NCBI GenBank assembly: GCA_016203175.1
Contig: JACQNH010000044.1
Span: 6,426-38,425 of the forward strand
Reading direction: 5' to 3'
Length of the DNA: 32,000 nucleotides
From: Candidatus Woesearchaeota archaeon
GTDB lineage: Archaea; Nanobdellota; Nanobdellia; SCGC-AAA011-G17; JACQNH01
Below, piece after piece: positions 11,569 through 32,000 of the stretch. The position numbers were made by a program, and so were the translations under genes. Position 1 is the first letter of the stretch. Every line of letters starts with the position of its first letter. The notes beneath the pieces were generated by a model. The model saw nothing but the letters and a program-made list of their open reading frames with translations. It was not told the DNA's origin and ran no database searches.

Positions 11569-11902
11569 AAATTATAAACCTTCCACCTTTTTTTTCAATA
11601 ATCAATTTCTTTGATCCTAAATTATTAATAATCTTAGTATTTGTTCTTTCTAAATCCACATCATCTCCAGTTATTTTAACGCCATTTCCAACAATATAAG
11701 CTATACTTGCATCCCCATCTGCATTTTTAATTAAAGTCTTGCCCAAATTCAACTGCTCAGATACAGATAAAGCATATCCTTTACTTTCAGCACCAAAAAC
11801 CTGATTTAAAGCAAAAACCATAACTAAAAAAAATAAAAATCCTCCTATAACCTGAAATAGATTCATAGTCTCCAAAACTACAGCATCACCTTTTTTATTC
11901 AT
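11546..11902 (-). CDS. prepilin-like protein (class III signal peptide)
   Basis: The N-terminus is MNKKG/DAVVLETMNLFQVIGGFLFFLVMVFAL. A GAGG SD lies 8 nt upstream of the ATG. Confidence 0.65.
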   Translation of the reverse strand: MNKKGDAVVLETMNLFQVIGGFLFFLVMVFALNQVFGAESKGYALSVSEQLNLGKTLIKNADGDASIAYIVGNGVKITGDDVDLERTNTKIINNLGSKKLIIEKKGGRFIIYEKTDLE

Positions 11903-11929
11903 ATTTTTGCCTCATTTTATTTTGCTAAT

Positions 11930-11964
11930 TTTTCTTTTCCAAGGTTTTCTTTTCTAAAGAAAAG
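11930..11964. repeat. intergenic element copy B: TTTTCTTTT-CCAAGG-TTTTCTTTT-ct-AAAGAAAA
   Basis: The architecture matches copy A, with direct 9-mers at 11930..11938 and 11945..11953 and an inverted 8-mer at 11956..11963. An 8-bp hairpin is retained despite two single-base indels relative to copy A. Confidence 0.7.
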
Positions 11965-11982
11965 TTAGTTTAAATAAATTTC

Positions 11983-13371: not shown

Positions 13372-13380
13372 TTCATCACC

Positions 13381-13545
13381 TTAAATTTTTGGCCACAATT
13401 TTAAAATATCACTCCAAAATCCCTTTATAGTCTCTCCAAACTTTCCAGTAACACCATATAATGCAATTAAAACAACAACTAAAACAACTAAAGCAATTGC
13501 AGCTACAATAATCCAGTTTATCTCTAAATCCCCTTTTTTGTCCAT
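13381..13545 (-). CDS. mini prepilin-like protein (54 aa); not in the ORF track
   Basis: Hand translation gives MDKKG/DLEINWIIVAAIALVVLVVVLIALYGVTGKFGETIKGFWSDILKLWPKI*. It has the same KKG plus hydrophobic-helix signature as its neighbours. It ends 9 nt before the next ATG. Confidence 0.6.
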   Translation of the reverse strand: MDKKGDLEINWIIVAAIALVVLVVVLIALYGVTGKFGETIKGFWSDILKLWPKI

Positions 13546-13579
13546 AAATTAATTAATAAAATTAGTTATATAAATGTTT

Positions 13580-13954
13580 TCATGTACATTTAGTAATTGT
13601 TACACAACTAACACCTAAATCTAATTCTTTTGTTAGTTTTCCAGGCTTATTAGATACACTACTACACTTATAAATTTCATCTTCACTACTATATTTCTTA
13701 TCTTTATCCCTATCAATCCAATAAAAAGCATTACAATAATTTGATTTATCATCTAAACTGCAAAAAGCTTGGCATTGATTTCTCCACAAATTCAACTGTT
13801 GCTGACTTACTTGAATAGTTTCAGGCACTCCACCCAATAGCCTTTCAGCTCCACCAGTAAAAAATACCAAAGCAATAACTAAAACAACTAAACCTATAGC
13901 TGCGATTATAATAAAATTCAAAGATAATTCAGCCCCTTTTTTACCTAAAGCCAT
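13580..13954 (-). CDS. prepilin (candidate major pilin; first gene of the distal pilin operon)
   Basis: The N-terminus is MALGKKG/AELSLNFIIIAAIGLVVLVIALVFF. The globular domain is short, giving 124 aa in total, with 6 Cys. It is promoter-proximal. Confidence 0.7.
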   Translation of the reverse strand: MALGKKGAELSLNFIIIAAIGLVVLVIALVFFTGGAERLLGGVPETIQVSQQQLNLWRNQCQAFCSLDDKSNYCNAFYWIDRDKDKKYSSEDEIYKCSSVSNKPGKLTKELDLGVSCVTITKCT

Positions 13955-15327: not shown

Positions 15328-16107
15328 TCACCTCTTTCTATATTGATAAGGATAAGCCCCAGTTTTTAATTTTGTAATTTCAAACTTATTTGTATCCCGA
15401 ATAAAATCATCAAGTAAACCATTAGTGTCCTTATCAAAAATAAAACCAAGATTACTAACTGCAACATTGTTATAATTAAAGAAAGTATAAGCTAAGATTG
15501 GAGCATAGAGTTTTTGACTTAAAACATAATCTGGTAAAATTCTCGCATTCAATCCTTGACGATCATAATAAATTTGCAAATCATTTTCATAAAAATTAAT
15601 AAAATCGCTAACAATAAAACCCCCTTTAGAACCAACAAAGTAACCAAATTCAACTCCAATATCATTTTTAAAAGATTTTTTCTGTATAAACTTATTTTGT
15701 AACTTATCAAATAATAAAAAAACTAAAACCTTTTTATCTTTAGAATTTTGAACATGAATTTCATAATCTTCTTTTAATAGTACTAATTTTCTTAAACCCA
15801 TAATTTTCATCTTGTCAGGTTCTTTAATTACACTTTCAAAAGCACTTACAACCTCATCAAAAGCCTTTTTAGCATTTGCAGCAGGATCACCATAAACTCT
15901 TTCAATACCGCTTCCTTTCAAACCAAAAACCTCTTTAAATTGACTAACAATATCGCTTGTTGTACCTTTTAATTCACCTCTAAACTTTGTAGCAGTTTCA
16001 CCTGTAGAAAAAGATAAATAACCAATCCCAACAATAAAAATTAATACTAAAGCTATTCCACCATAAACCAATTCCTCATGCTCAACAGCCCCTTTTTTTG
16101 TAAACAT
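15328..16107 (-). CDS. prepilin-like protein (class III signal peptide)
   Basis: Starting at the ATG at 16107, the N-terminus is MFTKKG/AVEHEELVYGGIALVLIFIVGIGYL. The tracked start at 16119 is a TTG and would overlap the preceding mini-ORF. Confidence 0.6.
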   Translation of the reverse strand: MFTKKGAVEHEELVYGGIALVLIFIVGIGYLSFSTGETATKFRGELKGTTSDIVSQFKEVFGLKGSGIERVYGDPAANAKKAFDEVVSAFESVIKEPDKMKIMGLRKLVLLKEDYEIHVQNSKDKKVLVFLLFDKLQNKFIQKKSFKNDIGVEFGYFVGSKGGFIVSDFINFYENDLQIYYDRQGLNARILPDYVLSQKLYAPILAYTFFNYNNVAVSNLGFIFDKDTNGLLDDFIRDTNKFEITKLKTGAYPYQYRKR

Positions 16108-16109
16108 TT

Positions 16110-16268
16110 TCAACCCCAAAAAGTTCCTTTAAATACTTCTTTAAAATAATTTATTACTCCTTCCCTAATTTCATTTGATATTAAAAAATATATAATAACA
16201 ATAATTAATATTATAACTAATGCAACAATATAATCCCAGTGTATCGCTCCTCTTTTAAATTTAAGCAC
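16110..16268 (-). CDS. mini prepilin-like protein (52 aa, GTG start); not in the ORF track
   Basis: Hand translation gives (GTG)M-LKFKRG/AIHWDYIVALVIILIIVIIYFLISNEIREGVINYFKEVFKGTFWG*. The GTG overlaps the upstream stop (GTGCTTAA). The stop TGA at 16112..16110 lies 2 nt before the next ATG. No ATG is available in this frame. Confidence 0.5.
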   Translation of the reverse strand: MLKFKRGAIHWDYIVALVIILIIVIIYFLISNEIREGVINYFKEVFKGTFWG

Positions 16269-17007
16269 TTTTAACCCCTCCAAAAGCTAATAAATTTCTC
16301 TGTGATATATAATCCTTTCCCCCGTCATAAGCATAATCATCTGTAAATATTAATCTATCAGGATCATCCATTTCAAAACCATCATAAAATCTTATATAAT
16401 ATCTACAACTAATTTTTTTACATTCTTCAGCATCCTTATCAAAAATAGATTTGCCTAAAAATCTGTTATCAATCCTTAGTTTATTCCCCCATAACCCAGT
16501 TCTTTCCACATACTCAACAAAACTTTCTTCTGTATAACTATCATCATTAAAAAGTTTGTTTAGAGGTATATTTAATGCATTCAAAAATTCTGTTACACTT
16601 ATCTCATCACTTTTGTCTAAATCAATATTAAAATTAAAACAAGTATTATAACTATTAACAGCAAAAAACCACTCCTTCAATAATTTTGGATGAGGAGTAT
16701 TTCCAAGCATTTCCCAACATCTCCCCATTAATTTAACAATATCCTTAATAACTTCATCTTTATCCCCCTTTGCTATTTGATCTTTACTTCCACAAGCCAA
16801 AGGCATTGTCGCAGGAAGAAATTTACCAAAAAAAGAAACCAAATTACCATTAATCCTCCCACTAATAGCACAAGCCAATTCCCCCCCATAAAGACTAAAT
16901 TGCTTCTGACCTAAATAAACAATAGAACCAGCCACTACTGCAAAAATAATTACTAATACTATACCCAACATAACATTTGGACCCCCATCTCCTTTTTTAA
17001 GCAACAT
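16261..17007 (-). CDS. prepilin-like protein (class III signal peptide)
   Basis: The N-terminus is MLLKKG/DGGPNVMLGIVLVIIFAVVAGSIVYL. It is the first pilin-like gene downstream of the platform gene. Confidence 0.6.
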   Translation of the reverse strand: MLLKKGDGGPNVMLGIVLVIIFAVVAGSIVYLGQKQFSLYGGELACAISGRINGNLVSFFGKFLPATMPLACGSKDQIAKGDKDEVIKDIVKLMGRCWEMLGNTPHPKLLKEWFFAVNSYNTCFNFNIDLDKSDEISVTEFLNALNIPLNKLFNDDSYTEESFVEYVERTGLWGNKLRIDNRFLGKSIFDKDAEECKKISCRYYIRFYDGFEMDDPDRLIFTDDYAYDGGKDYISQRNLLAFGGVKSA

Positions 17008-19227: not shown

Positions 19228-22200
19228 TTATTCTTTTTCCAAAGCTGTCCTCTCACCTTGAATACCTTTTTTTAACCATTCAACCCATTCATTATAAATT
19301 TTTTTACTATCTAAAACACCAGTCATACTTTTTACATTTTCAGAAACAATATGGAACATATCATTAGCTTGAACAATAAAATCAGCCTCTAAAATATCAG
19401 GTCTGTTTAACTTTAGACTATAATCCAATAAAGTTTGTTTTATTTTAGCTCTTAATAAAATATTATCCCAAACAGCAGCCCAATTTCCAGCCCAGTCTTT
19501 AACATTCCCAGCTATAGATTTCAAAATTTCACTATCTCCATTTTTTAAATCATCTGTAATCTCTAATTGATCTGTCTTAGGATTATATCTCATTAAATCT
19601 ACAAAACCACCCTCTTTCAAAGGATCTTCTTCCCAATGTTTTCTTACCTCAGTAATTTGTAAAACCCTTCTAAAATAGCTCAAACCATCGGGGCTTCTAA
19701 CAGGATTTGATAGCACAATTATATCTGTAGCTTTAAAACTTGTTCTTGGAACACCTAAATCATTTACAACTCTATCAAATACACCATAAGGACTTTCGCC
19801 ATGAATTGTACCTGCAACGACATTAGCTAACGCACCTATGCGCATGGACTCAAAAAGTGACTTTGCTTCAACACTTCTTATTTCACCTACAATTAAACTA
19901 CTATCCCCCATTCTTAAACTCGTTCTTATCCCCTCATCAGCGCCAACTTCAGTTCCACCAGTAGCTAAAGCACTTCTTACTTTCATCTGCTGAACATTAT
20001 AACCTAATCTTCTATATGCTTCTAAAGGAATCTCTAAAGTATCTTCAATCGAAACTATTCTGTATTTCCTCATAATCTCAGCAATAGCACTTCCCAAAAG
20101 ACTAGTATTATGAGCAATAATCCCATTAGCAACAAAATTATGTGTCCTATCAACAGTTAAATCATAAACATAATCATCTATTTTATTAACAACTTCAATA
20201 GATACAATTTCATCCCAAAAAATATCAGAATGTGCTAATTGCTCAGTCTCACAAATTAAATCAAAAACTTCTTTCGCAACTACCTTATCATAAATATTTA
20301 AAATAGTTTTAACAATAGATTGAAATACTTCTAAAGTAGATACACCTTTTCCCATAAAGAAATTTGTTACAGTTGTAATAGAAACATCATCAGATAAAAA
20401 TTCAGAATTAGAAATATTAAGCTCATTCCTCAAATAGGAAATGAGTATACCAACATCAAGATAGCTTATTAAAAATTTCATAGAGTTTAGTTTACTAAGT
20501 AAATCAACAGCTTCTTTAAAATTTGATAAAAGCTTACTCCTTAATTCAACTAGATAACTTTCAAGTAATATTTGTTTTTGCACAGGTATATTGATGTTAT
20601 CTGGACCATAAGCATAATATTTCAAAGTAGTTTCAGGAATACTAGTAGCTTTAGAAATATCAACGTAAGAAACTAAACCTGCATTAACGAAAAGCGGTAC
20701 ATTTCTCATGGTCAAGTCTAAATTCTTTAAAAACTCCAGCTCAACAAAACGTTTATTAAAAAAATTAATAATAGAAGAAGTTCGAGCTAAATTGCTAATA
20801 TTACCAATTCTAAAATTTTTTAATATTTTTCTAACTCCTCTTTCGGAAAAACCTAAATTAGCAGCTAAAGTACCATAAGATAAACCAAAAAGCTCTTTCA
20901 ATCTAGCAATATCTTTAAAATACAAGCTACCATCAAAATTAACAAAATTTCTTAAATTATTTACTTTTTCATTTAAAGAAAGAAGTTTTATATATCTTTC
21001 TTTATAAAAACATATAATCTTTGAAAACCAATTTCTTGTTACTCTATATTGATCATTTTCATAAGACCAATAATCCTTTCCAATATCTTTCCTTAAATCC
21101 AATGGTGAAACTCTAAGTTTCTTCCTTAATAATCTAAAAATTTCATTTCCTTGGGGGATTGTATCAACATTTGTATTTTCTATATATTTTTTTGTTACAA
21201 GCGAATTTAAAACTTCTTTTTTAAAAGGATGCGAAAAACCAATATTATTAAAGAAGTCTACAACACAACGGCCATAAATATAATTTCTATAATAAGGCAC
21301 ACCATTTATTATTTTTAAACAATTAAAAGTAGTTATACCAAATCGCAATAAAGCAAATCTTAGGTACTCAATCATTGATTTACTTGCCGATACAAGTTCT
21401 ATCATTCTCTTATCTTTACTAACAGAACCATCTGTATCAAAATAACCTCTTAAAAAAGCAGCTAAAACCTCATTCTTTGATTTGAGTATAACCTGAGGAA
21501 TAATAATTTTATTTGCCTTATTTCCTAGTGGAATCTCAAAAACCTCACTCAAAAGACTAGAAAGGATTCTAGAGGATACTTGAACAACAGTAGTAGTCCT
21601 AGATTTAAAAACCCTATAGGGCACATTGAACATTTTTATTAATCTAATATACTTCTCTCTAAGTTCTACACAGCTATTATGAAATTCTAATTTTGTTTTA
21701 TCAATATGACCATCCCCTAAAATTAAACCAACAAATTCAGCAATGTCAGCATCAACCAATTTAGGAAAGTAAACAATTGAAGAATTAGTTTTTCCCTTTA
21801 AAATATAATAATCATCATTTTCTCTAATAAGATAAGGATGCCCTTTTAAATCAATCGAAATTTCTTTACCAATAACTTCAATTTTTCTAGGGGAAGCAAT
21901 TAAATCCTTAATTTTAAGTTCATCAGCTCTCTTATTTTTTAAACCCTTATAATAAACAAAGTAAGGATGCTCACAAGTAGTAATTATCTCCTTTCCGCTC
22001 TTTGTTCTTATTTTAATAAGTTTGTCAGGTGAACTTCTTTTCCAAACATCTGTAATCTTTTGATTAGATATCTGAAATCCATCTAAAGACTTAACACTTA
22101 AATCAGAGATAGGCTCATAAATATAACCATCATCAATCTGTTTTTTCTCTTTTCCAACTAAATCCTTAATCTTCTTTATACCACCATCAGCAAACTGTAT

Positions 22201-23613
22201 TAAAGTATCCCCACCAACACACTTTCCTGAACTTCTTGTACCAGCAAAAATTAAGGACCTGTTTCCATCGATTACAAAACTTAACAAACCAGCAGCCATA
22301 CTATTAATCATTTTGTTCTTCATAAATAAAGGAAAAGTCCATGGCTTATCCCTATGTCTCCTGAATGCATAAGCCAAACCAAAAGGATTTAATGGACTAG
22401 TTATAATTGCAACCCTCGCTCTTGATTTAGGCAAAATTAATTCCGTATCTAAAATAGGATTTGCCTCATCTAACGCCCTTCCACTTAAAATTCTAAATTT
22501 AGTTGCCCACCCTTGAACATCATCATTACTAGGATAAATATTTGTAAAACAATGACCATAATCTTGATGAACAACATAAATAGGATTCTCACCAACAGGA
22601 GCATTAATTGTTATATCTTGTATCTTCTCATCTTCTAACAAAACTTCAATCAAACCAAAACCAATAGTATAACGAACTAAAATCGAAGATAAATCATTTA
22701 ATTTTTCAATACTAATATCCATTTCTCTTTGATCAGCCAATTCAGTTAATAAATCTCGAGCAATATTAAAAAAAGTATTCCTAACCCTTTCAGGCTCTAA
22801 AAAGTCTTCTTCTCTAGGTTGATGTTCACGAATTATTCCCCTAGCAGTCTCCAATAAACTATATTCATCCTCACTTAGTTTAAATTCAGGGGGATTTAAT
22901 TGATACAAATATTTTATGTCTCCTTTAATCCTGTAAACCCCAACATCACTTTGATTAAAACTATAAACATCTAATTGCTCTGCATCTAAAGGAGGCTGTA
23001 CTCTTAATCTAGAAAGCATAAAATCAGGAGTAATAGCAGCCCTAAACACTAATCGATAAATACTTCTATCACCAATCTCAAAACCATCTAATTCATCCCT
23101 TGTAGCATTTATCAAAGCAGTATTATTTAACAATCCATACAAATAATCTAAAAGATCAAAAAAAGATTTCTCATAGGGGTTCTCAGCTTTTTTTAGTCTT
23201 ATTCTACTTTCCCTCCTCAATCTTTTTATTTCAACAAAAGCACTTATAGGATCACTTTTTAATAAACCATAAACAATAGTCTGTAAATTTGTTAATCTTT
23301 CACCCAAATAAGAAGAGCAGTTAGGGTCCAAAACCAAACTCCAAATACCTCTTTGTTTTACTAAGGCATTATAAACATTAGAGATTTCAACTAATAACTG
23401 GGTTTGATGATAATTGTAAATATAATTCTTATTTAAATAAAAAATTATTCTCTTAACTCCTGGAAATTCAATTAATCTTTCAATGGTTTTTAACATACAG
23501 ACAGGATCATCTTCTAAACTAGGGCTATGACCTGCTATCAAACAATCTATCTTTAAAATCTCTTCCTGCCCTTCCCTAACAATCTGAAACTCTCTTTTTT
23601 CAACTTCAACCAT
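19228..23613 (-). CDS. type II/IV secretion-family ATPase (FlaI/PilB/GspE-like pilus assembly ATPase), intein-containing precursor
   Basis: Walker A is split as AGTRSSGK-[intein]-TSLLGS. Downstream motifs are RIVSIEDTLEI, the Asp-box/Walker B SSLIVGEIRSVEA and the His-box VAGTIHGESP. The exteins are 464 + 292 aa. Confidence 0.85.
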   Translation of the reverse strand: MVEVEKREFQIVREGQEEILKIDCLIAGHSPSLEDDPVCMLKTIERLIEFPGVKRIIFYLNKNYIYNYHQTQLLVEISNVYNALVKQRGIWSLVLDPNCSSYLGERLTNLQTIVYGLLKSDPISAFVEIKRLRRESRIRLKKAENPYEKSFFDLLDYLYGLLNNTALINATRDELDGFEIGDRSIYRLVFRAAITPDFMLSRLRVQPPLDAEQLDVYSFNQSDVGVYRIKGDIKYLYQLNPPEFKLSEDEYSLLETARGIIREHQPREEDFLEPERVRNTFFNIARDLLTELADQREMDISIEKLNDLSSILVRYTIGFGLIEVLLEDEKIQDITINAPVGENPIYVVHQDYGHCFTNIYPSNDDVQGWATKFRILSGRALDEANPILDTELILPKSRARVAIITSPLNPFGLAYAFRRHRDKPWTFPLFMKNKMINSMAAGLLSFVIDGNRSLIFAGTRSSGKCVGGDTLIQFADGGIKKIKDLVGKEKKQIDDGYIYEPISDLSVKSLDGFQISNQKITDVWKRSSPDKLIKIRTKSGKEIITTCEHPYFVYYKGLKNKRADELKIKDLIASPRKIEVIGKEISIDLKGHPYLIRENDDYYILKGKTNSSIVYFPKLVDADIAEFVGLILGDGHIDKTKLEFHNSCVELREKYIRLIKMFNVPYRVFKSRTTTVVQVSSRILSSLLSEVFEIPLGNKANKIIIPQVILKSKNEVLAAFLRGYFDTDGSVSKDKRMIELVSASKSMIEYLRFALLRFGITTFNCLKIINGVPYYRNYIYGRCVVDFFNNIGFSHPFKKEVLNSLVTKKYIENTNVDTIPQGNEIFRLLRKKLRVSPLDLRKDIGKDYWSYENDQYRVTRNWFSKIICFYKERYIKLLSLNEKVNNLRNFVNFDGSLYFKDIARLKELFGLSYGTLAANLGFSERGVRKILKNFRIGNISNLARTSSIINFFNKRFVELEFLKNLDLTMRNVPLFVNAGLVSYVDISKATSIPETTLKYYAYGPDNINIPVQKQILLESYLVELRSKLLSNFKEAVDLLSKLNSMKFLISYLDVGILISYLRNELNISNSEFLSDDVSITTVTNFFMGKGVSTLEVFQSIVKTILNIYDKVVAKEVFDLICETEQLAHSDIFWDEIVSIEVVNKIDDYVYDLTVDRTHNFVANGIIAHNTSLLGSAIAEIMRKYRIVSIEDTLEIPLEAYRRLGYNVQQMKVRSALATGGTEVGADEGIRTSLRMGDSSLIVGEIRSVEAKSLFESMRIGALANVVAGTIHGESPYGVFDRVVNDLGVPRTSFKATDIIVLSNPVRSPDGLSYFRRVLQITEVRKHWEEDPLKEGGFVDLMRYNPKTDQLEITDDLKNGDSEILKSIAGNVKDWAGNWAAVWDNILLRAKIKQTLLDYSLKLNRPDILEADFIVQANDMFHIVSENVKSMTGVLDSKKIYNEWVEWLKKGIQGERTALEKE
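20107..22221 (-). mobile_element. large (705-aa) LAGLIDADG intein in the P-loop of the pilus ATPase (aa 465-1169)
   Basis: Block A is CVGGDTLIQFADGG (Cys1) and block B is IITTCEHPYF (TxxH). The LAGLIDADG motifs are FVGLILGDGH and FLRGYFDTDGS. The C-terminal blocks are YVYDLTVDRTHNFVANGIIAHN, followed by Thr+1. Boundary codons were checked: TGT 22221..22219 and AAT 20109..20107. Excision restores GTRSSGKT. Confidence 0.85.
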
Positions 23614-23694
23614 TTAATACCTCTTCAAAAACCTTTTTAAATACCAATAACTTTGAAAGATTAAATAGTTTTCGATTACAAAAAGAGGTTTAAA

Positions 23695-24063
23695 ATGGTA
23701 TTAGAACAAACAAATGAAGCAGAATATTTTTTAGCTTCAGCAGGAACAAGATTATCAATTCTAGAAAATAAGTACAATATGATTAGTGAAAAATTACTAA
23801 TTATAAACCAGAATATGATCACAGAGTATAAAAGGTTATTAACAGAAATAAGCTCATTTGGAAGAGAAATTAAGGATTTAAAATCACAAATAAACACTTT
23901 AAAAGAATCCTTAACATTAATTTCAAGAGAATTAACATTTTTTGCAAGAAAAGAATCTGTTAAAGAATTAGAAAAGTATATTAACCTCTGGCAACCACTA
24001 AATTTCACAACAGAAGACGATGTTAAAAGAATAATAAGAGAAGAAAAAAGAGGTAAAAAATAA
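23695..24063 (+). CDS. coiled-coil protein, unknown function
   Basis: The 122-aa protein is heptad-rich (ENKYNMISEKLLIINQNMITEYKRLLTEISSFGREIKDLKSQINTLKESL). It has an AGAGG SD. It is divergent from the ATPase operon and overlaps the next gene by 1 nt (TAATG). Confidence 0.55.
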   Translation: MVLEQTNEAEYFLASAGTRLSILENKYNMISEKLLIINQNMITEYKRLLTEISSFGREIKDLKSQINTLKESLTLISRELTFFARKESVKELEKYINLWQPLNFTTEDDVKRIIREEKRGKK

Positions 24064-24644
24064 TGCCATCACCTTTAGAATTAGCAGTTGAACTCCAGAA
24101 TAAAGGATTGGGTGAAGAAAGAATAGCATCAGAACTAGCAACACAAGGTTTCTCAAAAGAACAAATTTCTCAAGCTATAACACAAGCAAATGTTAAAACA
24201 CAAGTAGAAGAAATTCCAGAACCCCCCCCAGCACCTGAAGCACCTATTACAATACAAGAAACCCCTCAACAAATTCCAGAACCACAAGTAGGACAATTCC
24301 AGACCTATACATCTACAACATCCCAACAAATAGAACAAATAGCAGAAGAAATTATCCAAGAAAAATGGGAAAGATTTGTAGAAACATTTGGCGACTTACC
24401 TATCTGGAAAGAAAAAATTGAAACAGATGTTTTGTCAATTAAACAAGAGATCGTCAGAACACAAGATAGATTAAATGGCATTGAAAGAGCATTAGCATCT
24501 AAAGTACAAGAATATTCTGAATCCATAACAGATCTAACAGCAGAAATGAAAGCACTATCAAAATTATTAAATCAAATCTTACAACCATTAACATCTAATA
24601 TAAAGGAACTACAAAGATTAACTGAAAAATTTAAGAAAGAATAA
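24063..24644 (+). CDS. three-part protein: small helical N-domain, Pro/Glu/Gln-rich linker and C-terminal coiled coil; unknown function
   Basis: The N-domain is PSPLELAVELQNKGLGEERIASELATQGFSKEQISQAI. The linker is EEIPEPPPAPEAPITIQETPQQIPEPQ. The coiled coil is KQEIVRTQDRLNGIERALASKVQEYSESITDLTAEMKALSKLL. Confidence 0.55.
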   Translation: MPSPLELAVELQNKGLGEERIASELATQGFSKEQISQAITQANVKTQVEEIPEPPPAPEAPITIQETPQQIPEPQVGQFQTYTSTTSQQIEQIAEEIIQEKWERFVETFGDLPIWKEKIETDVLSIKQEIVRTQDRLNGIERALASKVQEYSESITDLTAEMKALSKLLNQILQPLTSNIKELQRLTEKFKKE

Positions 24645-24730
24645 TTTACCTTTAAATGCCTTATTTTTGTAATTATAGACCAGTAGTAAAAAATAGAAAG
24701 GTTTATATAGCAATTTACTTATAACCCCTT

Positions 24731-25402
24731 ATGAAACTAGTTGTTCTTGGAGATATACATGGGAAATGGAAAAGAGTTAATGCAATTATTAATCACGAAC
24801 TCGACAAAGGTTTTGCATTATCTACAGGAGACTTAGGAAACTATAAATTTGAACCAGAAAATAGACAGAAAATTATATTTTGTCATGGTAATCATGAAAG
24901 TTTTCAATATATTAAAGAACTAATGGAAGATAAATCAAATAATTTAATACCTCTCAAAGCAGGAGAAATTTATACATTATCTGATGGTACAACTATAACT
25001 GCCTTACCTGGTGTATTCTCGCCCAAATTTTATGAAAAAGGATGTATTTTAAAATATTTTTCAAAAGCTGATGTAGAAAAACTTTTATGTTTAGAAAAAA
25101 AGATAGATATACTTTTAACCCACGAAGCGCCATTTGGGATTGGGGTTACAAAAAATGGTTTTGATCTAGGAAAAGAACAAATTAATCAAATAATTAAGCA
25201 TTTAAACCCAAGAATAGGTTTTTTTGGTCACCATCATTTTTTTTGTGATAAATATTTAAATACTACACGTATCATTGGTCTTGATCAACCAAATCATTCT
25301 TATATCCTTTTGGATACAGAAACATTTACTCCCAAAATAATACAAGCTTCCCTTCAAAATAGATTAGGTTACCAATATAAGTGGGAAAGGAAAGAAATTT
25401 AA
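24731..25402 (+). CDS. calcineurin-like metallophosphoesterase
   Basis: The motifs appear in canonical order: LGDIHG, TGDLGNY, CHGNHES, LLTHEAP and FFGHHH. Confidence 0.85.
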   Translation: MKLVVLGDIHGKWKRVNAIINHELDKGFALSTGDLGNYKFEPENRQKIIFCHGNHESFQYIKELMEDKSNNLIPLKAGEIYTLSDGTTITALPGVFSPKFYEKGCILKYFSKADVEKLLCLEKKIDILLTHEAPFGIGVTKNGFDLGKEQINQIIKHLNPRIGFFGHHHFFCDKYLNTTRIIGLDQPNHSYILLDTETFTPKIIQASLQNRLGYQYKWERKEI

Positions 25403-25918
25403 ATGCTAGAAAGTAAATTAAAAAATATGAAAGACGAATTCAATGAAGGCATATTATTACTAAAAAACGAAAGAAACCAAGAGGCTCTAAAATACTTTAA
25501 TTCAAAATTAGCAACTGATGATCCTTTGGTTTATTATGGAATTGCAACAGCAAAATTTAAAATAAAACAACATACTTTAACTATAGAAGAGCTATATGAA
25601 ATTATTGTTTTGTATAAAAAAGCACTAGAAAAGGACCAAAAATTTGCAGACGCTTATTTAATGTGTGGGTTAACCTATGGACAATTGGCTTCTACATTAA
25701 CAATAGCGTATAAAAGAGACCCACTTAATAAAGGTGATTCTCAAATAAATAATATTAAAAATATTCTACAACAATCAAAATGGTTTATAGAAAAAGCTAT
25801 AGAAATTAATCCTGATTTCGCCAAAAATTGCGAGCATATCCTCAATAAATTCGAAAGAAGATTTGAAGGTATTGATTCTTTAAAGAAGTTTTATGAAAAT
25901 AGATCTCAATTTAACTAA
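25403..25918 (+). CDS. TPR-like helical repeat protein
   Basis: The 171-aa protein is all-helical in character. It has TPR-like segments (EALKYFNSKLATDDPLVYYGIATA; YKKALEKDQKFADAYLMCGLTYGQL; IEKAIEINPDFAKN). It begins directly after the phosphoesterase stop. Confidence 0.5.
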   Translation: MLESKLKNMKDEFNEGILLLKNERNQEALKYFNSKLATDDPLVYYGIATAKFKIKQHTLTIEELYEIIVLYKKALEKDQKFADAYLMCGLTYGQLASTLTIAYKRDPLNKGDSQINNIKNILQQSKWFIEKAIEINPDFAKNCEHILNKFERRFEGIDSLKKFYENRSQFN

Positions 25919-28900
25919 CGTGTTAAAGGAATATTTCCTGACTTATCAAAAGGACCCTCTTCTCTAACAACTCCAACTTGAATTTTCTTCACACCGAGGG
26001 ATTTCCCTAAATCAATCATTTCCCCTTCAAGTTTATGTATTGGATCAATAACTTTTAGATATCGTGCATTTATTAAGCCAGTAGGATAATCCTTCTGAAA
26101 TTTTTTTAAATCTTTTTCTGCACTAGAGTAAGTACTTATTTTGAATGCATCTTCAATTTTTTTTGCTATACTATTATAGTTTTGTTCATCCATAACAATA
26201 TTTATATCAATATCTTTATCAGATCCAAAAACAAATCTTTCACCTGTTTTAGAAGAAACACCTATAACAGAACTACCAACAACCATTACTTTTTTTGGAT
26301 CATATGTAAAAGGAAGTCTATCAAGAACATCAAATACACCATTAGATAACTGAGTAAACATATCTTTATTAAAACCAAAAGGTAAACCAGTCTCCTTTAC
26401 TTTTAGATGTAATGGGGGATTACAAGATTTTGCAATAGTCTTTCCAACATTTGCTTGTGTTGTTAAAAGATAATCTTCTACAAATTCAAAAACTTCTGAA
26501 GGCATATTAGGAAATCTCGGAATAACTTGCTCAATAACAAATTCTGTTGGATCAAAGTCCATAAGTCGATAAAAGTTCTCATCTGCAACAGGTATCTCCT
26601 CGGGTGTTGGTGCAGGAATACCTTTTATTATATCTTCAAGCGTTTTTTTAGTAGCATCTGTTACTTCTCTAACTCTAACTGGTTCTAGGAATTTAGCATG
26701 TTCAAAATCATAACCTAAAACTTTTCCTTCAGGTGCTATCCCAAGATTATGGAGTAACAATTTCCCACTTTGTGTTAGCCCTATACCAAAATCATCATCA
26801 CCAATTAAATATCGTAAAACCTTAATTTTATTAGCAGCTGTTTTTGTTATTTGAAAGGGATCTCCCCCTTCAACTGCTAATTGTAATGAACCCTCAACAT
26901 TTCCCAAACCTGAAATTTCTTCTAGTTCACTTGGCTTTATACTTGCACCTTCTATTTGTTGAGGTGTTATTTTATAACTATCAGTTTCTGGAACTGCACC
27001 TAATTCTAATTCCTCACTTAATTTGTATACAATTTCTTCAATCTTCCCACTATTCCCTGATCTAAAAAATGCCTTTACACCATTCTTAAATATAACCCGA
27101 TAAGCTTTACTATAAGCAGAAATAGGACCAATTATAACAATAGTTTTTTCTATAGAATCAATTGGCATATCTTTCAAAGAAACTATATCAATTTTTGGAG
27201 CTGGTAACGCTAATCTTTCCGGCCTAAGTAGTTTACAAGTGCCTTTTTCAAGACCCACCAAATCTTTATTATTTATACAAGATTTTATTTCTAAAGCAAA
27301 ATTTTCAGGAACTCCTTCATCAACGAGTAATTGCTCTAAAGGTTTTGGTTGACTATTAAGTGCATTTCTTATAAAAGATCCTCCCAAAGTTGAAGAACCT
27401 ACAGCCATTGCTGTATCTTGAGCAGAAGCCCCAGCTTTTGCAGTACTAGCCACTAAACCTACAAGATTTTCAACAGGAATTTCTACAGGCTTAAGTAATA
27501 CAAGACCCCCTTCGCCTTCTGAAATCCTAAACATTACAAACTGACCCTTACTAATAGGTATAGGTACTAGAGTTTCAACTGCTCCTTCAACTGGAACCCC
27601 CAACAATTTTGCAAGCCAATTTACTTTTACTCTATAAGGAGTTGCTGTATAAATTTGCCCTTCAATTGGAACCTCTATTTGTTTTTCAGGAATCTCTACA
27701 GCTATTCTTTTTAAATAAGTTGTAATAATCTTCTGTCCATAGGGAGACTGTATAAAAGATTCTCCAGCAATCTTTCTTAAAGATTGTGCACCAGCTACTG
27801 CAAATAAAGCTGTGGCCCCCATATCTGCACATTTTTGACTAACTTGGAAATATTTTTCACATTCTGGTCTAAGTTCAGGTTCAATAAGATGAATCTTAGG
27901 ACACCATTCTGCATCCTTATCCAATCTAAATTCTTCAAATGCTTTAACACATTCAGGAGCCACTTCATTAAAATGATACAAAACTGCTGGAAGAGTAATT
28001 GCAGTTAAAGCTACACCTACCTTTCCTACAAGTGGAGCAATTACAGGGAAAAATCCACTAATAAAACCAACTGCCATAGGTGCAACAAGAGTCCCACCAA
28101 CTAAAAGGTACTTTGCTGTTTGCCATTCAGGATGTTCAGGAGGCATACAGAACAGATCTCTATTTTTGCTTGAAAAAAAGCTGACATCCCCCCCATAAAG
28201 TTCAGCCCCTGTTGTCATATCATCATCCCAAGGAGTAACCCCGTTCTCATAATCAACAGAATAACCTTCTTTGAAATTTTTATTACAATTAATATCCAAA
28301 AGATCAGCAGTACCACAACTCAATGCTTCTTGCTCAGGATAAGGACTTAAAGGAGCAAATGGATGCACATACTTTGCACTTATCTTTATATAATCCTCGC
28401 GAGTTGCACCTGTAAGACTTAAGGCTTTTACATACTTCTCTGGATCCAATAATTTTATTCTTTCTTTCACCGGCAATGATTGTGGTGGACTAGATCCCAA
28501 TACAATAGCATGATAATCGGGAATACCGTTATTATTGAAATCCTGCTCATCATCATCACCCTCATAATTATCACAGTCAGAAAATAATTTAGATTCTGCA
28601 AAAGGAAAACATTCTTTATTTTCTAAGCAATAATCATAATTAACACATAATTGTGGGATTTTATCTCTTTCTTTTATTGCAGCAAATCCCCCCTCAGTTT
28701 TTCCAAGATGTTTAATCATATCACAATAACCTTTATGACTTCCTAAGAATCTATCATCATCCGCATCCCAACCTTTATTATAACATTCAGGATCATCACC
28801 ATCAGCAAGGGTTACAAGAAGAGTTTTACCCAAGTGTTCAGTTTCAGTACATGTTTCCGATTCAGAATATTTTTTTATTATTTCAAAACCGGTGCGTAAG

Positions 28901-31900
28901 GTCGAATCTTCAAAAGGACTAAATATTTTAAATATATTATTCAAATCTTCTTTCCCATCATTATCAACACCATCTTTACATTTATCTTTCTTAACACAAT
29001 TTGTTTTCCAACCAGTCTCTTTTTTTAGAACAGTTTTTCTACAAGGGTTATCCTGTTCATTACCCTCTTTATCAATATATTTTTTTGAAATAAACTTATT
29101 AAAATCAAGTTCACCATATCTTGAATCAATTACTTTATCTTCTTTCTCAGGAAGACAATTAAATGCAACATCTAATTTAGACTCTACCCCTGATCCAGTT
29201 ATAAAATTAAGCTCACATCTAGCATCTTTATTCGTTTTTAAGGGAAATACATTTGGTATTATAGTCTCTTTTGCCCCACCAGGTGAAAATCTACATTCAT
29301 TTATACCACTAGATTCTTCAAGGTGGATTACACATTGTTCATCCTCTTCACACGCTGTTCCATCAGATAAACCATTCCAAACCCCGGTGCATTTATTATT
29401 TGTTCCACATATCCTTGGTCTATCATCCCCTCCTAAGACAGGATAATTACAAAAAGAACATGCGGCATACAATGTAGACTTACAAATACCAACTCTAGAC
29501 ACCTTTCTATCCACACATTTATCATCCCCAAACAAAGCCCACAAATTAAGATCATTATTACAACTATTTCCAGTTTTAATCCCCCATAAATATTCATTAG
29601 TTTCACTATTTTGACAACATACTACAGCAGAACAAAATGATTCATCATTAGATGGATCATCATTACAATCCAAAGGACCACAATAACCTCCTTCTGGTGA
29701 AAAGCCATCATTATCTTTATCAGAACAAACAGAACAACCAGTATAATCCCGAATACCAGAAAAATCAATAGTAAATTCTCCTTCAGCATAATCTTGTCTA
29801 ATTTTATTAAGACCTACACTAAATTTTTTATCAGCATAATATAAATATAAATTTGGAATCTGAATCAATTCACCTTGAAGAGAGAATTTAATTTTTGTTT
29901 TATCACGAACATTACTTATGCTTCTTGTATCACTTGGCAACTGACCTTCAGAACTGTCACTAATAGGCGGATCAATAAAAAACTTAGTAATCCTAAGCTT
30001 TCCTTTACCACCTATGCTTGTTCTTGAATCTTGACCTCCGCTTATAAATGCAGGACAAGAAATAACTTTACCTATAATAGGGCAACTATACACATTAGTG
30101 TCTGTACTACATTGAGTTTCAACTTCTGTTTTAAGCCCAATTAGGTTCTGTTTATCTTGATTATCCACCTTTCCATCATTATTTAAATCTAATAATTGTG
30201 AAAAATCATCTCCACGTAAATATTTTTCAAAAATTAATAAATCACGTCCCCCAACCTTTCCATCACTATCAAGATCTCCTTTTATACCCTCTTTAATTTT
30301 ACAAGGCAACTCTTCACCTGGATGTTCTTGTAACCAAGTTTCCATACCAAAAAAAGGTAAACAAGATACTTCACTAATGGTTTTTATCTTTACAACACTC
30401 AATTTATACCCACTTTCAGCATTACCTTCAATAGAGTAAGCTAGTTTTGTTCCAGAAGGTAAATCTTTAAAAAATAATTCAGCAATTTTTTTTATAGGAT
30501 CTTTAAAATTATCACAACTTATTTTAAAAGAATTTGGTAATTCATTAAAATTATTTTTATCAGACCAAACATCTACAGCATTTTGTTCTATAAATATCTT
30601 TGAAATAGTTTTAGTTCCGCCTTCCGCAATGTTTACTGTAGATATAACTTTTTGACAATCCCCAAAAGGTAAAGTATAGGAATGGTCTTGACCCGAGGTT
30701 ACATAAATACTTTTTGGAGTAACCCCTATATTTTGCCCATCTAAAATAATAGTAACCCCGCTTGGTTGGGAACTAAAATCTAATTTTCCTTTTCCTTCAA
30801 ATAAATTATATTGAAGATTAGTTTGTTGTATTTCAGATATACTTACAGAGCTAAATATTTTTATTAAATCCTCTTTTTTAACAGTTATTTTATAATTTCC
30901 AGGAATAAGCATAAAAGGTCTTGTTCGTGGTGAAGTTTCTTCATTAATAAACACTTGTGCATCTAACGGATTTCCACTAATCTCTAAATTTGTTACAAGT
31001 GTAGTTTGTAAATTTGTTGTTTGTCCACTATTAATTATTGCAGACTGAGAAAAACTTACATAACCAGCTTTTGAAATTTTTATATTATAATTCCCAATAG
31101 GGAGAGTAATTGAAATAATCCCATTAGAGTCAGTTTTTCCTCGCGGTGTTGTTTCTTGATTAATAAAAATATTAGCATCAGGATTAGAAGTGATTTTTAA
31201 AACCCCTGGTGCTGTTTGTTGTAAAGTTGCACTAATAGGGGTTGTTTCACCACCATAAGCATATTGAGTTATTGTCTGAGAATTATAACCACTTTTACTT
31301 AAAACAACTGTATGATAAGTATTTCCACTTAAATCAGAAACTGTTAATGGACTTATCCCCCTACTTACACCATCGACAGTTACACTTGCTCCTAAAGGAT
31401 TTGAAGTAATACTTATTGTAGAAGAAAGAGGGCTTCCAAAATTTGCAGTAAATGTAGTTGTTTCACCACCATAAGCATATTGCGTAACTTGTTGATTACT
31501 ATAACCTCTAATAGTAAAATACACAGTATATTGTTGATTTCCAGATAAAGAAACTGAAAAAGGAGTGCAACATCCAGCAGTAGCTCCACTTACACTCGCA
31601 CCGACAGGTATAGTTTGAAGATTTAAAGTTGCAACAGAAGGATTTCCTAATAATCGAGTAACTGTGGCCCTTCCCCCTGATACAACATTTTGATTGGCTA
31701 TCGAATCTACATAACCTCTTTTAATAAGTTTAACAGAATGAGTACCTGCTGAAACTGAAATATCAACCTGTCCACTAGTACTTGTTTGTCCCCCCCTAAC
31801 ATTGTCAATATAAATATCCGCAACGCAACGATTATCTCCAATATCAGCACATCTAGCATCTATTCTAAAAACCCCAGTACCAATCTGAAGTCCAGTAATT

Positions 31901-32000
31901 AAATTAGGTTTATCAAGATTTTTTTCTTTTAATTCCCTCACTGCAGAACCACTAACAACACCTAATCCAGAACCCCCACTTGAAATTGTAAAACCATTCA
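25915..32000 (-). CDS. giant multidomain surface/membrane protein (more than 2,027 aa, 5' end outside the window)
   Basis: The frame stays open upstream of the tracked GTG at 31941 to the window edge (..NGFTISSGGSGLGVVSGSAVRELKEK..). The domains read by eye are:
- PEGA/CarboxypepD_reg-like repeats (aa ~40-450), including a 72-aa tandem unit.
- A dockerin-like pair (aa 555-602).
- Cys/Asp-rich repeats (aa ~735-1275).
- A hydrophobic stretch (aa 1277-1324).
- A roughly 680-aa C-terminal region. Confidence 0.8.
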   Translation of the reverse strand, partial: NGFTISSGGSGLGVVSGSAVRELKEKNLDKPNLITGLQIGTGVFRIDARCADIGDNRCVADIYIDNVRGGQTSTSGQVDISVSAGTHSVKLIKRGYVDSIANQNVVSGGRATVTRLLGNPSVATLNLQTIPVGASVSGATAGCCTPFSVSLSGNQQYTVYFTIRGYSNQQVTQYAYGGETTTFTANFGSPLSSTISITSNPLGASVTVDGVSRGISPLTVSDLSGNTYHTVVLSKSGYNSQTITQYAYGGETTPISATLQQTAPGVLKITSNPDANIFINQETTPRGKTDSNGIISITLPIGNYNIKISKAGYVSFSQSAIINSGQTTNLQTTLVTNLEISGNPLDAQVFINEETSPRTRPFMLIPGNYKITVKKEDLIKIFSSVSISEIQQTNLQYNLFEGKGKLDFSSQPSGVTIILDGQNIGVTPKSIYVTSGQDHSYTLPFGDCQKVISTVNIAEGGTKTISKIFIEQNAVDVWSDKNNFNELPNSFKISCDNFKDPIKKIAELFFKDLPSGTKLAYSIEGNAESGYKLSVVKIKTISEVSCLPFFGMETWLQEHPGEELPCKIKEGIKGDLDSDGKVGGRDLLIFEKYLRGDDFSQLLDLNNDGKVDNQDKQNLIGLKTEVETQCSTDTNVYSCPIIGKVISCPAFISGGQDSRTSIGGKGKLRITKFFIDPPISDSSEGQLPSDTRSISNVRDKTKIKFSLQGELIQIPNLYLYYADKKFSVGLNKIRQDYAEGEFTIDFSGIRDYTGCSVCSDKDNDGFSPEGGYCGPLDCNDDPSNDESFCSAVVCCQNSETNEYLWGIKTGNSCNNDLNLWALFGDDKCVDRKVSRVGICKSTLYAACSFCNYPVLGGDDRPRICGTNNKCTGVWNGLSDGTACEEDEQCVIHLEESSGINECRFSPGGAKETIIPNVFPLKTNKDARCELNFITGSGVESKLDVAFNCLPEKEDKVIDSRYGELDFNKFISKKYIDKEGNEQDNPCRKTVLKKETGWKTNCVKKDKCKDGVDNDGKEDLNNIFKIFSPFEDSTLRTGFEIIKKYSESETCTETEHLGKTLLVTLADGDDPECYNKGWDADDDRFLGSHKGYCDMIKHLGKTEGGFAAIKERDKIPQLCVNYDYCLENKECFPFAESKLFSDCDNYEGDDDEQDFNNNGIPDYHAIVLGSSPPQSLPVKERIKLLDPEKYVKALSLTGATREDYIKISAKYVHPFAPLSPYPEQEALSCGTADLLDINCNKNFKEGYSVDYENGVTPWDDDMTTGAELYGGDVSFFSSKNRDLFCMPPEHPEWQTAKYLLVGGTLVAPMAVGFISGFFPVIAPLVGKVGVALTAITLPAVLYHFNEVAPECVKAFEEFRLDKDAEWCPKIHLIEPELRPECEKYFQVSQKCADMGATALFAVAGAQSLRKIAGESFIQSPYGQKIITTYLKRIAVEIPEKQIEVPIEGQIYTATPYRVKVNWLAKLLGVPVEGAVETLVPIPISKGQFVMFRISEGEGGLVLLKPVEIPVENLVGLVASTAKAGASAQDTAMAVGSSTLGGSFIRNALNSQPKPLEQLLVDEGVPENFALEIKSCINNKDLVGLEKGTCKLLRPERLALPAPKIDIVSLKDMPIDSIEKTIVIIGPISAYSKAYRVIFKNGVKAFFRSGNSGKIEEIVYKLSEELELGAVPETDSYKITPQQIEGASIKPSELEEISGLGNVEGSLQLAVEGGDPFQITKTAANKIKVLRYLIGDDDFGIGLTQSGKLLLHNLGIAPEGKVLGYDFEHAKFLEPVRVREVTDATKKTLEDIIKGIPAPTPEEIPVADENFYRLMDFDPTEFVIEQVIPRFPNMPSEVFEFVEDYLLTTQANVGKTIAKSCNPPLHLKVKETGLPFGFNKDMFTQLSNGVFDVLDRLPFTYDPKKVMVVGSSVIGVSSKTGERFVFGSDKDIDINIVMDEQNYNSIAKKIEDAFKISTYSSAEKDLKKFQKDYPTGLINARYLKVIDPIHKLEGEMIDLGKSLGVKKIQVGVVREEGPFDKSGNIPLTR

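Follow-up and report, generated by a model that had tools for sequence, protein, structure and literature searches.

The right end of a 32,000-nucleotide stretch of Candidatus Woesearchaeota archaeon contig JACQNH010000044.1 (hereafter the window) is filled by a single giant gene, and raises the question of what a protein that joins a long adhesin-like stalk to an enzyme-like C-terminal region might do for an archaeon of this kind. The original prediction, made from the sequence alone, placed an ectodomain and an enzyme tail on opposite sides of a membrane anchor. The most informative facts, which were absent from that prediction, are that the C-terminus of the protein is exchangeable and that it is accompanied by conserved partner genes at 24731-25918. 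Our preferred answer, a tentative one that falls a little short of being probable, is that the giant serves a DPANN archaeon of the Woesearchaeota/Nanoarchaeota type as an adhesin and carrier of effectors, tethered to a membrane and built like a polymorphic toxin.

The gene itself appears to be sound. Plus-strand translation of 25915-32000 is riddled with stops and the coding frame is on the minus strand; because this frame is open at the window edge, it is the N-terminus that is missing. When 1.84 billion cluster representatives were searched exhaustively with HMMER, the full-length product, P0001, was recovered; it is 2,145 aa long and 100% identical to the window translation, in agreement with the expectation of an open reading frame (ORF) of more than 2,027 aa continuing past the edge, and its additional 118 residues begin with a basic and then hydrophobic N-terminal signal or anchor. 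Residue numbers given here are those of the 2,027-aa window translation, to which 118 is added for P0001 numbering. A mis-join or sequencing error that united unrelated genes in one gene call could explain the mosaic architecture, as well as the sharing of a tail by otherwise unrelated proteins, with a break at about P0001 aa 1947-1980. However, Logan contig L001, an independent assembly, has the entire giant gene and matches window positions 19618-32000 with 1 mismatch in 12,383 bases (99.992%), the GC content is even along the gene (0.30-0.35), and no tandem DNA repeats of note or frame anomalies were seen in it, so that a chimeric assembly is very unlikely. Moreover, a second giant, P0002, is collinear over about 1,890 residues that span the stalk, dockerin, Cys module, hydrophobic hairpin and kinase-like region, and the arrangement of the tail with tetratricopeptide repeat (TPR) and phosphoesterase genes is found again in other genomes. 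The chimera that the original prediction had named as its own refutation is therefore essentially excluded. A 184-aa ORF lies antisense within the giant gene (28892-29446, plus strand) and is most likely spurious.

An exchangeable C-terminus and conserved partner genes

A Cys-rich module and the 47-residue hydrophobic stretch that follows it form the family core of a very rare scaffold, of which two homologues were found. The first of these, P0002 (2,484 aa, on a contig with a GC content of 0.54), is collinear with P0001 aa 60-1947 at 32% identity and is unrelated thereafter. The dockerins of the two are 50% identical, the PEGA and kinase-like parts about 25%, and the segment from the Cys module to the Cys residues just past the hydrophobic stretch 45-54%. 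Taken alone, the Cys module reaches 49-54% identity, compared with about 25% elsewhere, and keeps 31 of its 32 Cys; 35 of 36 Cys are conserved when the hydrophobic stretch and the next four Cys are included. Because identity and Cys conservation between P0001 and P0002 are highest here, this segment is taken as the functional core. The second homologue, P0009, was found with a profile of the core (E 7e-58, 29% identity, 97% of the query) and shares only the Cys module and the hydrophobic stretch. P0002 keeps the kinase-like region and ends differently from P0001, with a faint resemblance to Hint in its divergent end (E 0.099 for Pfam Vint; E 0.008 in a pairwise comparison with a PT-HINT sequence at the P0009 locus, L013), and P0009 runs past the hydrophobic stretch into the N-terminal half of a Hint domain (E 3e-6). 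The C-terminus is thus variable among otherwise homologous proteins, the three sharing a body and differing beyond it.

The Cys module itself is unusual. The protein contains 50 Cys, 35 of them within aa 755-1390 (the Cys module plus four just past the hydrophobic stretch), and the module bears DxDxDG-like and CxDGVDNDG motifs. It had been described as rich in Cys and Asp with thrombospondin type 3 or metal-binding repeats; the richness is plain but the repeats are not found, as there is no Pfam match in aa 621-1296 at E <= 10, no internal repeat of the region by BLAST, and no match in it to MopE or thrombospondin type 3 repeat profiles. The sole MopE signal is in the homologue P0009 (Cu-binding_MopE, E 0.0027) and is below threshold.

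The locus of P0009, on a Joint Genome Institute (JGI) metagenome contig, reads as a standard polymorphic-toxin locus. One ORF there carries RHS repeats (E 9e-19). Another combines the C-terminal half of PT-HINT (E 2.5e-12) with an ADP-ribosyltransferase (ART)-like end in which R, STS and ExE motifs are recognized by eye, and a convergent gene encodes an ADP-ribosylhydrolase with DraG-like and Tri1-immunity-like matches (E 5e-31 and 1e-27).

Judged from its distribution, the last 160 residues of the window protein are a separate, mobile domain, here called the tail, which ends four architectures. These are P0001 itself; P0003, P0004 and P0007, secreted giants of about 2,100 aa with no similarity to P0001 outside the tail; P0006, of 577 aa, with an intein/Hint block-G-like motif (THNYFAGGVLVHN) near its start; and P0005 and P0008, of 233-258 aa, P0005 being orphan-like and keeping about 50 residues of pre-tail sequence. 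Only 7 representatives were matched by the C-terminal 737 aa in the exhaustive search, and a word-indexed search with the tail profile returned only P0005 and P0008; with the C-terminal 737 aa the word-indexed homologue search returned nothing, missing even the identical P0001, and its negatives are weak for the giant protein. No match to the tail or scaffold profile was confirmed in locus scans of metagenome and viral collections, and there are no paralogues of the tail, TPR protein or scaffold elsewhere in the window. Both the scaffold and the tail domain lack a Pfam family and are very rare among the more than 5 billion proteins searched. A mobile-element origin was considered and is unsupported, with no match in phage and plasmid collections.

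The tail is accompanied by a small gene. In the window, the stop codon of a convergent TPR gene overlaps that of the giant gene by 4 bases (25915-25918), and a homologous TPR gene (153-171 aa; blastp E 3e-34 to 4e-3, all without signal peptides) stands tail-to-tail with the tail-bearing gene at all five loci compared (L001, L003, L004, L005 and L006), with the 4-base stop overlap shared by the window, L001 and L005. At three of the five loci the TPR gene is followed by a calcineurin-like metallophosphoesterase gene of 221-223 aa, the window phosphoesterase being 48-56% identical to its homologues in L003 and L004; the phosphoesterase gene is absent in L005. Because no other flanking gene is conserved, and GC content varies among the loci from 27.5% to 53%, the pairing of tail and TPR genes is more than the synteny of close relatives. 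The TPR protein is a candidate immunity protein, chaperone or partner of the tail. A reading of it as HEPN-like was dropped, there being no Rx4-6H motif by eye. The window phosphoesterase also matches the PADLOC candidate PDC-S10 (E 3e-11). The contig of P0006, which is outside the five-locus count, carries a convergent 180-aa gene. We also note a 40% identical phosphoesterase homologue within a 643-aa protein (L009, 138-2069) on a 2.7-kb contig binned as Deltaproteobacteria, with no TPR or tail gene visible.

Enzyme-like signals in the C-terminal region

The last 684 residues of the window protein match nothing in Pfam, NCBIfam or PDB sequences except for a weak AceK-kinase signal, and PDB sequence searches with the C-terminal 737 aa and with profiles A1 and A2 returned nothing relevant. 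Two further lines of comparison gave signals. The first concerns the tail, in which six sequences share the invariants G-S...G.S..T...F......D.D (G67, S68, D88 and D90), and so carry both the hG[GS] and the [DE]h[DE]h motifs of Pol-beta nucleotidyltransferases (NTases). The AlphaFold2 (AF2) model built from the six-row alignment has a predicted local distance difference test score (pLDDT) of 84 and a predicted template modelling score (pTM) of 0.77, and places in order a helix, a strand followed by the GS, a short helix, a strand bearing the DxD, helices and a further strand, with strands at 63-66 and 88-95. This order is the core pattern of Pol-beta-type NTases. About 16 of the 24 best Foldseek matches in the PDB are NTases (CdnD, GLD-2, TUT7, CCA-adding enzyme, TdT, FAM46B and AadA), at E 0.27-3 and template modelling scores of about 0.2. 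One of the six tail members also matches Pfam Polbeta, at E 0.04-0.06. The spacer between GS and DxD is about 20 residues, which we take to be longer than in minimal nucleotidyltransferases (MNTs), and the third carboxylate, on beta-3, is not clearly conserved. A PDB profile search of the tail returned no NTase, hhalign of the tail against an MNT encoded on L001 was negative, and Foldseek against viral models was uninformative. A known defence system of the CBASS-like kind was also considered and dropped, since neither the tail nor the TPR protein nor the C-terminal region matches anything in NCBIfam or PADLOC.

The second line concerns the region upstream of the tail, where P0001 and P0002 share the motifs GS(L/M)QL.(V/I)EG, L(R/D)YL.G(D/N)(D/N)D(F/R) and (Y/F)D(F/N)E.A. 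A two-sequence profile aligns by hhalign with human phosphatidylinositol 4-kinase (PI4K) type II alpha (PI4K2A; the sequence was checked against PDB 4HND) at a probability of 57% and E 1.1e-4 over 76 columns, with GSxQLFVEG, LDYxxxNxDR and xDNG of the human enzyme in register with the motifs of the giant. As controls, the sequence reversed scored E 0.47 and an unrelated protein E 0.36. In the window protein the catalytic-loop Arg is replaced (DDF for TDR) and the aligned Asn is absent, with both motif Asp kept (DDF and YDF); P0002 retains DR and DN. There is a weak Pfam AceK_kinase match at aa 1744-1786 (E 0.011-0.015) and no Pfam PI3_PI4_kinase match in the region, and an AF2 model built from the two sequences is unusable (pLDDT 39.5). 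We regard the kinase-like region as a lead, its PI4K type II-like signal being weak but specific, and not as a family assignment. The enzyme-like tail of the original prediction accordingly survives in part: there is a weak PI4K type II-like signal and, modelled with confidence, a small domain that bears the GS...DxD motif of NTases, but the assignments are weak.

These comparisons bear on whether the giant is a purely structural surface or envelope protein, i.e. an adhesin, or an S-layer- or pilus-tip-associated protein, anchored by the hydrophobic stretch, with degenerate C-terminal domains and the TPR protein as an assembly chaperone. The loss of the catalytic-loop Arg and the want of any enzyme family match at curated thresholds are consistent with such a role, as are the PEGA and dockerin domains, which are typical of surface and scaffold proteins, the presence, at a distance of 2.3 kb, of ATPase, TadC-like and pilin-like genes that form a type IV pilus-like cluster, and the overlapping gene with a pilin-like N-terminus, recognized by eye, that precedes P0003, P0004 and P0007. 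However, the invariant G, S, D and D in six diverged tails, in an NTase-type arrangement, speak for a domain that is catalytic or binds nucleotides; homologues have exchanged C-termini, and one of them lies in a toxin locus; and an anchor would need no conserved pair of cytoplasmic partners. A structural role alone therefore seems to us distinctly unlikely.

Stalk, membrane topology and the absence of sequons

The outer stalk is made up of the N-terminal signal sequence, some six PEGA units and a dockerin that is intact, so that the giant has both the secretion signal and the repetitive extracellular stalk expected of polymorphic toxins. The PEGA domain (PF08308) matches in 5-6 tandem stretches at 109-123 bits (curated cut-off 20.8), and one unit also matches Pfam CarboxypepD_reg (E 2e-9). 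The dockerin scores above the curated cut-off of 22.9 bits for Dockerin_1 (PF00404), has both calcium-loop motifs of the DxDxDG type intact (DLDSDGKVGGRD and DLNNDGKVDNQD), as in a duplicated F-hand loop, and is 50% identical to that of its orthologue P0002. Neither the L001 genes nor the 20 ORFs scanned in the window, which make up nearly all of its ORFs with 80 aa or more, include a match to cohesin. A class III (pilin-type) signal for the giant was rejected by eye, with charged residues between the RG and the hydrophobic core. The domain checks thus agree with the original prediction in the six or so PEGA units (placed there at aa ~40-450), the dockerin-like pair, and the order of the segments from PEGA array, dockerin and Cys/Asp-rich region to the hydrophobic stretch and large C-terminal region.

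The hydrophobic stretch at aa 1297-1343 is the only strongly hydrophobic one in the window translation and is followed by 684 residues, close to the 680 or so first estimated. It had been given as 48 residues forming one or two transmembrane (TM) helices; the stretch is present, at 47 residues, and its length favours two helices and not one. In all three scaffold members (P0001, P0002 and P0009) it is 47-54 residues long with prolines mid-stretch, and from this length we infer a two-helix membrane hairpin. Both flanks are net acidic and both have conserved Cys, with no CxxC spacing, which also speaks for an exported C-terminus. A two-helix hairpin, together with the Hint and toxin modules that lie past it in relatives and the sequon void described below, suggests that the tail is also exported. 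P0003, P0004 and P0007 have classical signal peptides and, in mid-protein, only weakly hydrophobic Gly-rich segments with no convincing TM helix, which likewise implies an exported tail.

The giants are devoid of N-X-S/T sequons. P0001 has none in 2,145 residues, for a shuffle mean of 16.0, and none of 5,000 shuffles was free of them; the other four giants also have none, for shuffle means of 13.9 (P0002), 17.5 (P0003), 22.0 (P0004) and 10.3 (P0007), whereas each of the five contains 10-26 copies of the reverse motif S/T-x-N. Past the hydrophobic segment, zero sequons compare with 4.9 expected in P0002 (p 0.005), 5.4 in P0003 (p 0.002), 9.8 in P0004 (p < 2e-4) and 4.3 in P0007 (p 0.009), and the summed post-hydrophobic regions of the five giants have zero with 26 expected. 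Cytoplasmic-type ORFs on the same contigs contain 30 sequons with 44 expected and 44 with 56 expected, and individual proteins such as the ATPase (9 versus 9.3) and a 903-aa flavoprotein (5 versus 5.3) are near expectation. Several other secreted ORFs are also free of sequons, among them the pilin-like genes of the window (0 versus about 9.4), an S74 protein of L001 (0 versus 5.8), and the RHS ORF (0 versus 4.4) and toxin ORF of L013; a few pilin-like proteins are sequon-rich. The simplest reading suggests selection against N-glycosylation along the whole chain, and such selection would make sense only if all of it, tail included, were exposed outside the cell and had to be kept free of glycans. 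A literature search found no published description of such a void. The sequon-free tail, the length of the hairpin and the Hint and toxin modules of relatives make the originally proposed division of ectodomain and enzyme tail by a membrane anchor doubtful.

How such a protein might act can be outlined. The PEGA stalk and a dockerin-cohesin contact would bind a partner cell, and the two-helix hairpin would leave the kinase-like and NTase-like C-terminal part exported. Because these enzymes need nucleoside triphosphates (NTPs), they would act as effector or toxin only inside a recipient cell, where they would probably phosphorylate or nucleotidylylate a target. The TPR protein would neutralize or chaperone the tail in the producer or its kin, and the phosphoesterase could undo the modification or remove its product, on the model of the ART toxin and ADP-ribosylhydrolase that are paired in L013. 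A bolder version, which we consider unlikely, is that the Cys module and hairpin are a new archaeal delivery device: once attachment through the dockerin or PEGA units has taken place, the hairpin would enter the partner membrane and pass a payload, kinase-like and NTase-like and kept free of glycans, into the cytoplasm of that cell, and the producer would be protected by the TPR protein and phosphoesterase.

Several observations weigh against an exported effector. First, profile scans find no Hint, peptidase or other pre-toxin release domain in the window protein, for which reason we do not file the giant as a member of the polymorphic toxins. Secondly, the enzyme-like signals are slight: the tail has no significant match (Foldseek E >= 0.27, Polbeta E 0.04) and is called NTase-like, not an NTase, on that account, and the kinase-like signal is a single pairwise profile comparison in which the catalytic-loop Arg is lost. 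Thirdly, the physical link of scaffold and toxin in L013 is indirect, because the RHS ORF seems to divide the Hint domain, and both it and the toxin ORF start with a signal-like sequence of their own. Fourthly, the candidate TPR immunity gene is convergent, unlike the co-directional genes of classic systems. Fifthly, in P0003, P0004 and P0007 it is the C-terminal 700 aa including the tail that is most conserved and the N-terminus that is most variable, which is opposite to the typical polymorphic toxin and would better suit a conserved effector or an intracellular module. Finally, the absence of sequons past the hydrophobic segment of P0001 is not by itself significant (0 versus 2.3 expected, p 0.09), and a short third segment (12-15 hydrophobic residues), kept with the basic stretch that follows it in all three scaffold members, could be a TM helix and so place the tail in the cytoplasm.

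The main rival builds on this last point, and supposes a transmembrane contact receptor with the PEGA, dockerin and Cys-rich parts facing outward, three membrane passes and a cytoplasmic kinase-like and NTase-like output that, together with the TPR protein and phosphoesterase, would for example make and degrade a nucleotide signal or a protein modification. Past the third segment, K+R against D+E number 6/5, 6/3 and 10/2 in the three members, and the earlier flanks are acidic; folds dependent on ATP or other NTPs operate in the cytoplasm, and neither partner has a signal peptide. The stand-alone P0005 is also without a signal peptide and adjoins a TPR gene, there are few Cys past aa 1390, and a conserved C-terminus behind a fast-diverging N-terminus is what a variable sensor coupled to a conserved transducer would give. 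However, the third segment is short, no 19-residue Kyte-Doolittle mean in it reaches 1.4 and a simple Hessa sum is unfavourable; P0009 runs into its Hint within a secreted-toxin locus; a Cys pair at aa 1574 and 1588 is conserved; and the absence of sequons spans the C-terminal regions of all five giants, unlike the cytoplasmic proteins of the same contigs. We consider a receptor of this kind possible but doubtful.

Genomic context and comparison with known systems

The coordinates of the giant gene, its segments, the partner genes and the related loci are collected in the table. The surroundings are archaeal, as had been foreseen: the window carries RadA, RPA, CDP-archaeol synthase (CarS), an A24 prepilin peptidase and inteins, and the nearest homologues of neighbouring genes are in a Nanoarchaeota single-cell genome (SAG) and a Woesearchaeota metagenome-assembled genome (MAG), in support of a DPANN context. 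The T2SSE-type ATPase gene lies 2,302 bases from the giant gene, in keeping with the 2.3 kb first estimated. Three genes contain inteins with LAGLIDADG domains, coding for an FAD/NAD-binding oxidoreductase (400-3111), RadA (5281-7905) and the T2SSE-type ATPase (19228-23613), all on the minus strand. Small minus-strand ORFs with archaeal pilin (class III signal) N-termini (KKGQ, KRGQ and KKGA) and no Pfam matches lie at 9677-13954 and 15328-17007, adjoining the ATPase and a 706-aa polytopic TadC-like gene, and the A24 prepilin peptidase is at 3162-4019; the cluster is probably a type IV pilus-like system. A conserved gene of 322-349 aa, with a signal that looks pilin-like by eye, stands before each of the giants P0003, P0004 and P0007 and often overlaps it (blastp E 3e-33 to 5e-54; L003 5326-6375, L004 6911-7942 and L005 1408-2376); the giant of the window has no such gene before it. 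Past the window edge, L001 (6253-9022) carries upstream of the giant gene a divergent 379-aa secreted protein with Peptidase_S74, a self-cleaving chaperone of the tail-fibre type, and a set of three paralogues, each a multi-pass membrane protein of about 180 aa.

Table. Positions of the giant gene, its segments, partner genes and related loci (aa numbers refer to the window translation)
Feature	Position	Strand	Basis or remarks
Giant gene	25915..31998	-	2,027 codons plus stop at 25915-25917; frame starts at 31998
PEGA / carboxypeptidase-regulatory-like beta-sandwich array, ~6 units, aa 62-469	30592..31815	-	Pfam PEGA, E 1e-31 to 3e-36
Type I dockerin, aa 573-622	30133..30282	-	Pfam Dockerin_1, 26.7-31 bits, aa 573-620
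Cys-rich module, conserved and non-repetitive, aa 755-1296	28111..29736	-	Identity to P0002 and P0009
Hydrophobic Gly/Ala/Pro-rich stretch, 47 residues, aa 1297-1343	27970..28110	-	Kyte-Doolittle 19-residue window means <=1.88
Acidic loop with 4 conserved Cys, then Ala/Gly-rich hydrophobic segment of 12-15 aa, then basic stretch, aa 1344-1407	27778..27969	-	Alignment of scaffold members
Kinase-like region, aa 1620-1829 (core aa 1696-1771)	26512..27141	-	hhalign to PI4K type II alpha
Tail domain, minimal nucleotidyltransferase-like alpha/beta, aa 1871-2027	25918..26388	-	Alignment A1, AF2
TPR protein, 171 aa, convergent, no signal peptide	25403..25918	+	Pfam TPR_11, E 1.7e-7
Metallophosphoesterase, calcineurin-like, 223 aa, no signal peptide	24731..25402	+	Pfam Metallophos, E 5e-12; adjoins TPR gene
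TPR gene with or without phosphoesterase gene, window	24731-25918	+	
Same module, L003	12620-13750		
Same module, L004	14283-15478		
Same module, L005	8816-9331		
Same module, L006	1092-1562		
Predicted polymorphic-toxin locus, JGI metagenome contig L013	9092-16799		Order: signal peptide + Cys-rich ORF, scaffold gene (P0009), RHS ORF, PT-HINT/ART-like ORF, hydrolase

Two features are worth following up, the module of tail, TPR protein and phosphoesterase, and the sequon void. The molecular basis of how DPANN archaea attach to and act on other cells is largely obscure, and the locus supplies testable parts: a rare scaffold with different payloads, and a new small NTase-like domain with a TPR partner and a linked phosphoesterase. 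The absence of sequons could mark exported proteins that need to stay unglycosylated. If the effector reading is true, the logic of polymorphic toxins would extend to Woesearchaeota/Nanoarchaeota-type archaea and give a handle on conflict between symbiont and host or between archaea; the delivery device, if true, would be a means of contact-dependent effector translocation, used by DPANN archaea to manipulate hosts or competitors or to kill them.

Comparison with known enzymes gives partial likenesses. In common with Pol-beta NTases (MNT, KNTase/AadA and CD-NTases), the tail has hG[GS] after beta-1, DxD on beta-2, an alpha-beta-alpha-beta-alpha-beta order and NTases as its best Foldseek matches; it differs in its uncertain third carboxylate, the lack of a significant match, and a partner that is a TPR protein and not HEPN. 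The window protein shares three motifs in register with type II PI4K (PI4K2A, PDB 4HND), but has no Pfam PI3_PI4_kinase match, does not conserve the Arg and following Asn, aligns over only about 76 columns, and its structure model failed.

Among large surface proteins, the SPEARE proteins of Nanohaloarchaeota are larger than the giant. The original prediction had likened the two, and both are giant multidomain DPANN surface proteins with a proposed role in host contact (PMC6642349). However, they have no sequence relationship, and Pfam and NCBIfam give no match in the giant to the serine protease and restriction endonuclease domains that define SPEARE proteins; since these are absent, the giant is not a SPEARE protein and the likeness goes no further than being a giant surface protein of a DPANN archaeon.

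The closest parallels are with toxins and their relatives. Polymorphic toxin systems were reportedly described by Zhang, Aravind and colleagues in 2012, and are said to have been surveyed in archaea by Makarova and colleagues in 2019. An archaeal polymorphic toxin survey is mentioned in PMC6393860. Like the Rhs/YD, CdiA and WapA-type toxins, the giant has a signal, a long repetitive stalk, a conserved body and an exchangeable enzyme-like end, together with a small, tightly linked partner gene, an orphan-like short copy, and a scaffold homologue in an RHS/PT-HINT/ART-like/Tri1-like locus. It differs from them in having neither a release domain nor RHS repeats, in the Cys module and predicted hairpin between stalk and payload, in its convergent partner gene, and in that the payload is the conserved part in P0003, P0004 and P0007. 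Lastly, teneurins are type II single-pass proteins and the window protein has no YD shell, but teneurins and their bacterial YD-shell ancestors share with the giant a membrane tether, a Cys-rich extracellular region, a carboxypeptidase-regulatory-like beta-sandwich and a C-terminal toxin-derived domain, and in L013 a precomputed TEN_YD-shell match lies beside the scaffold homologue.

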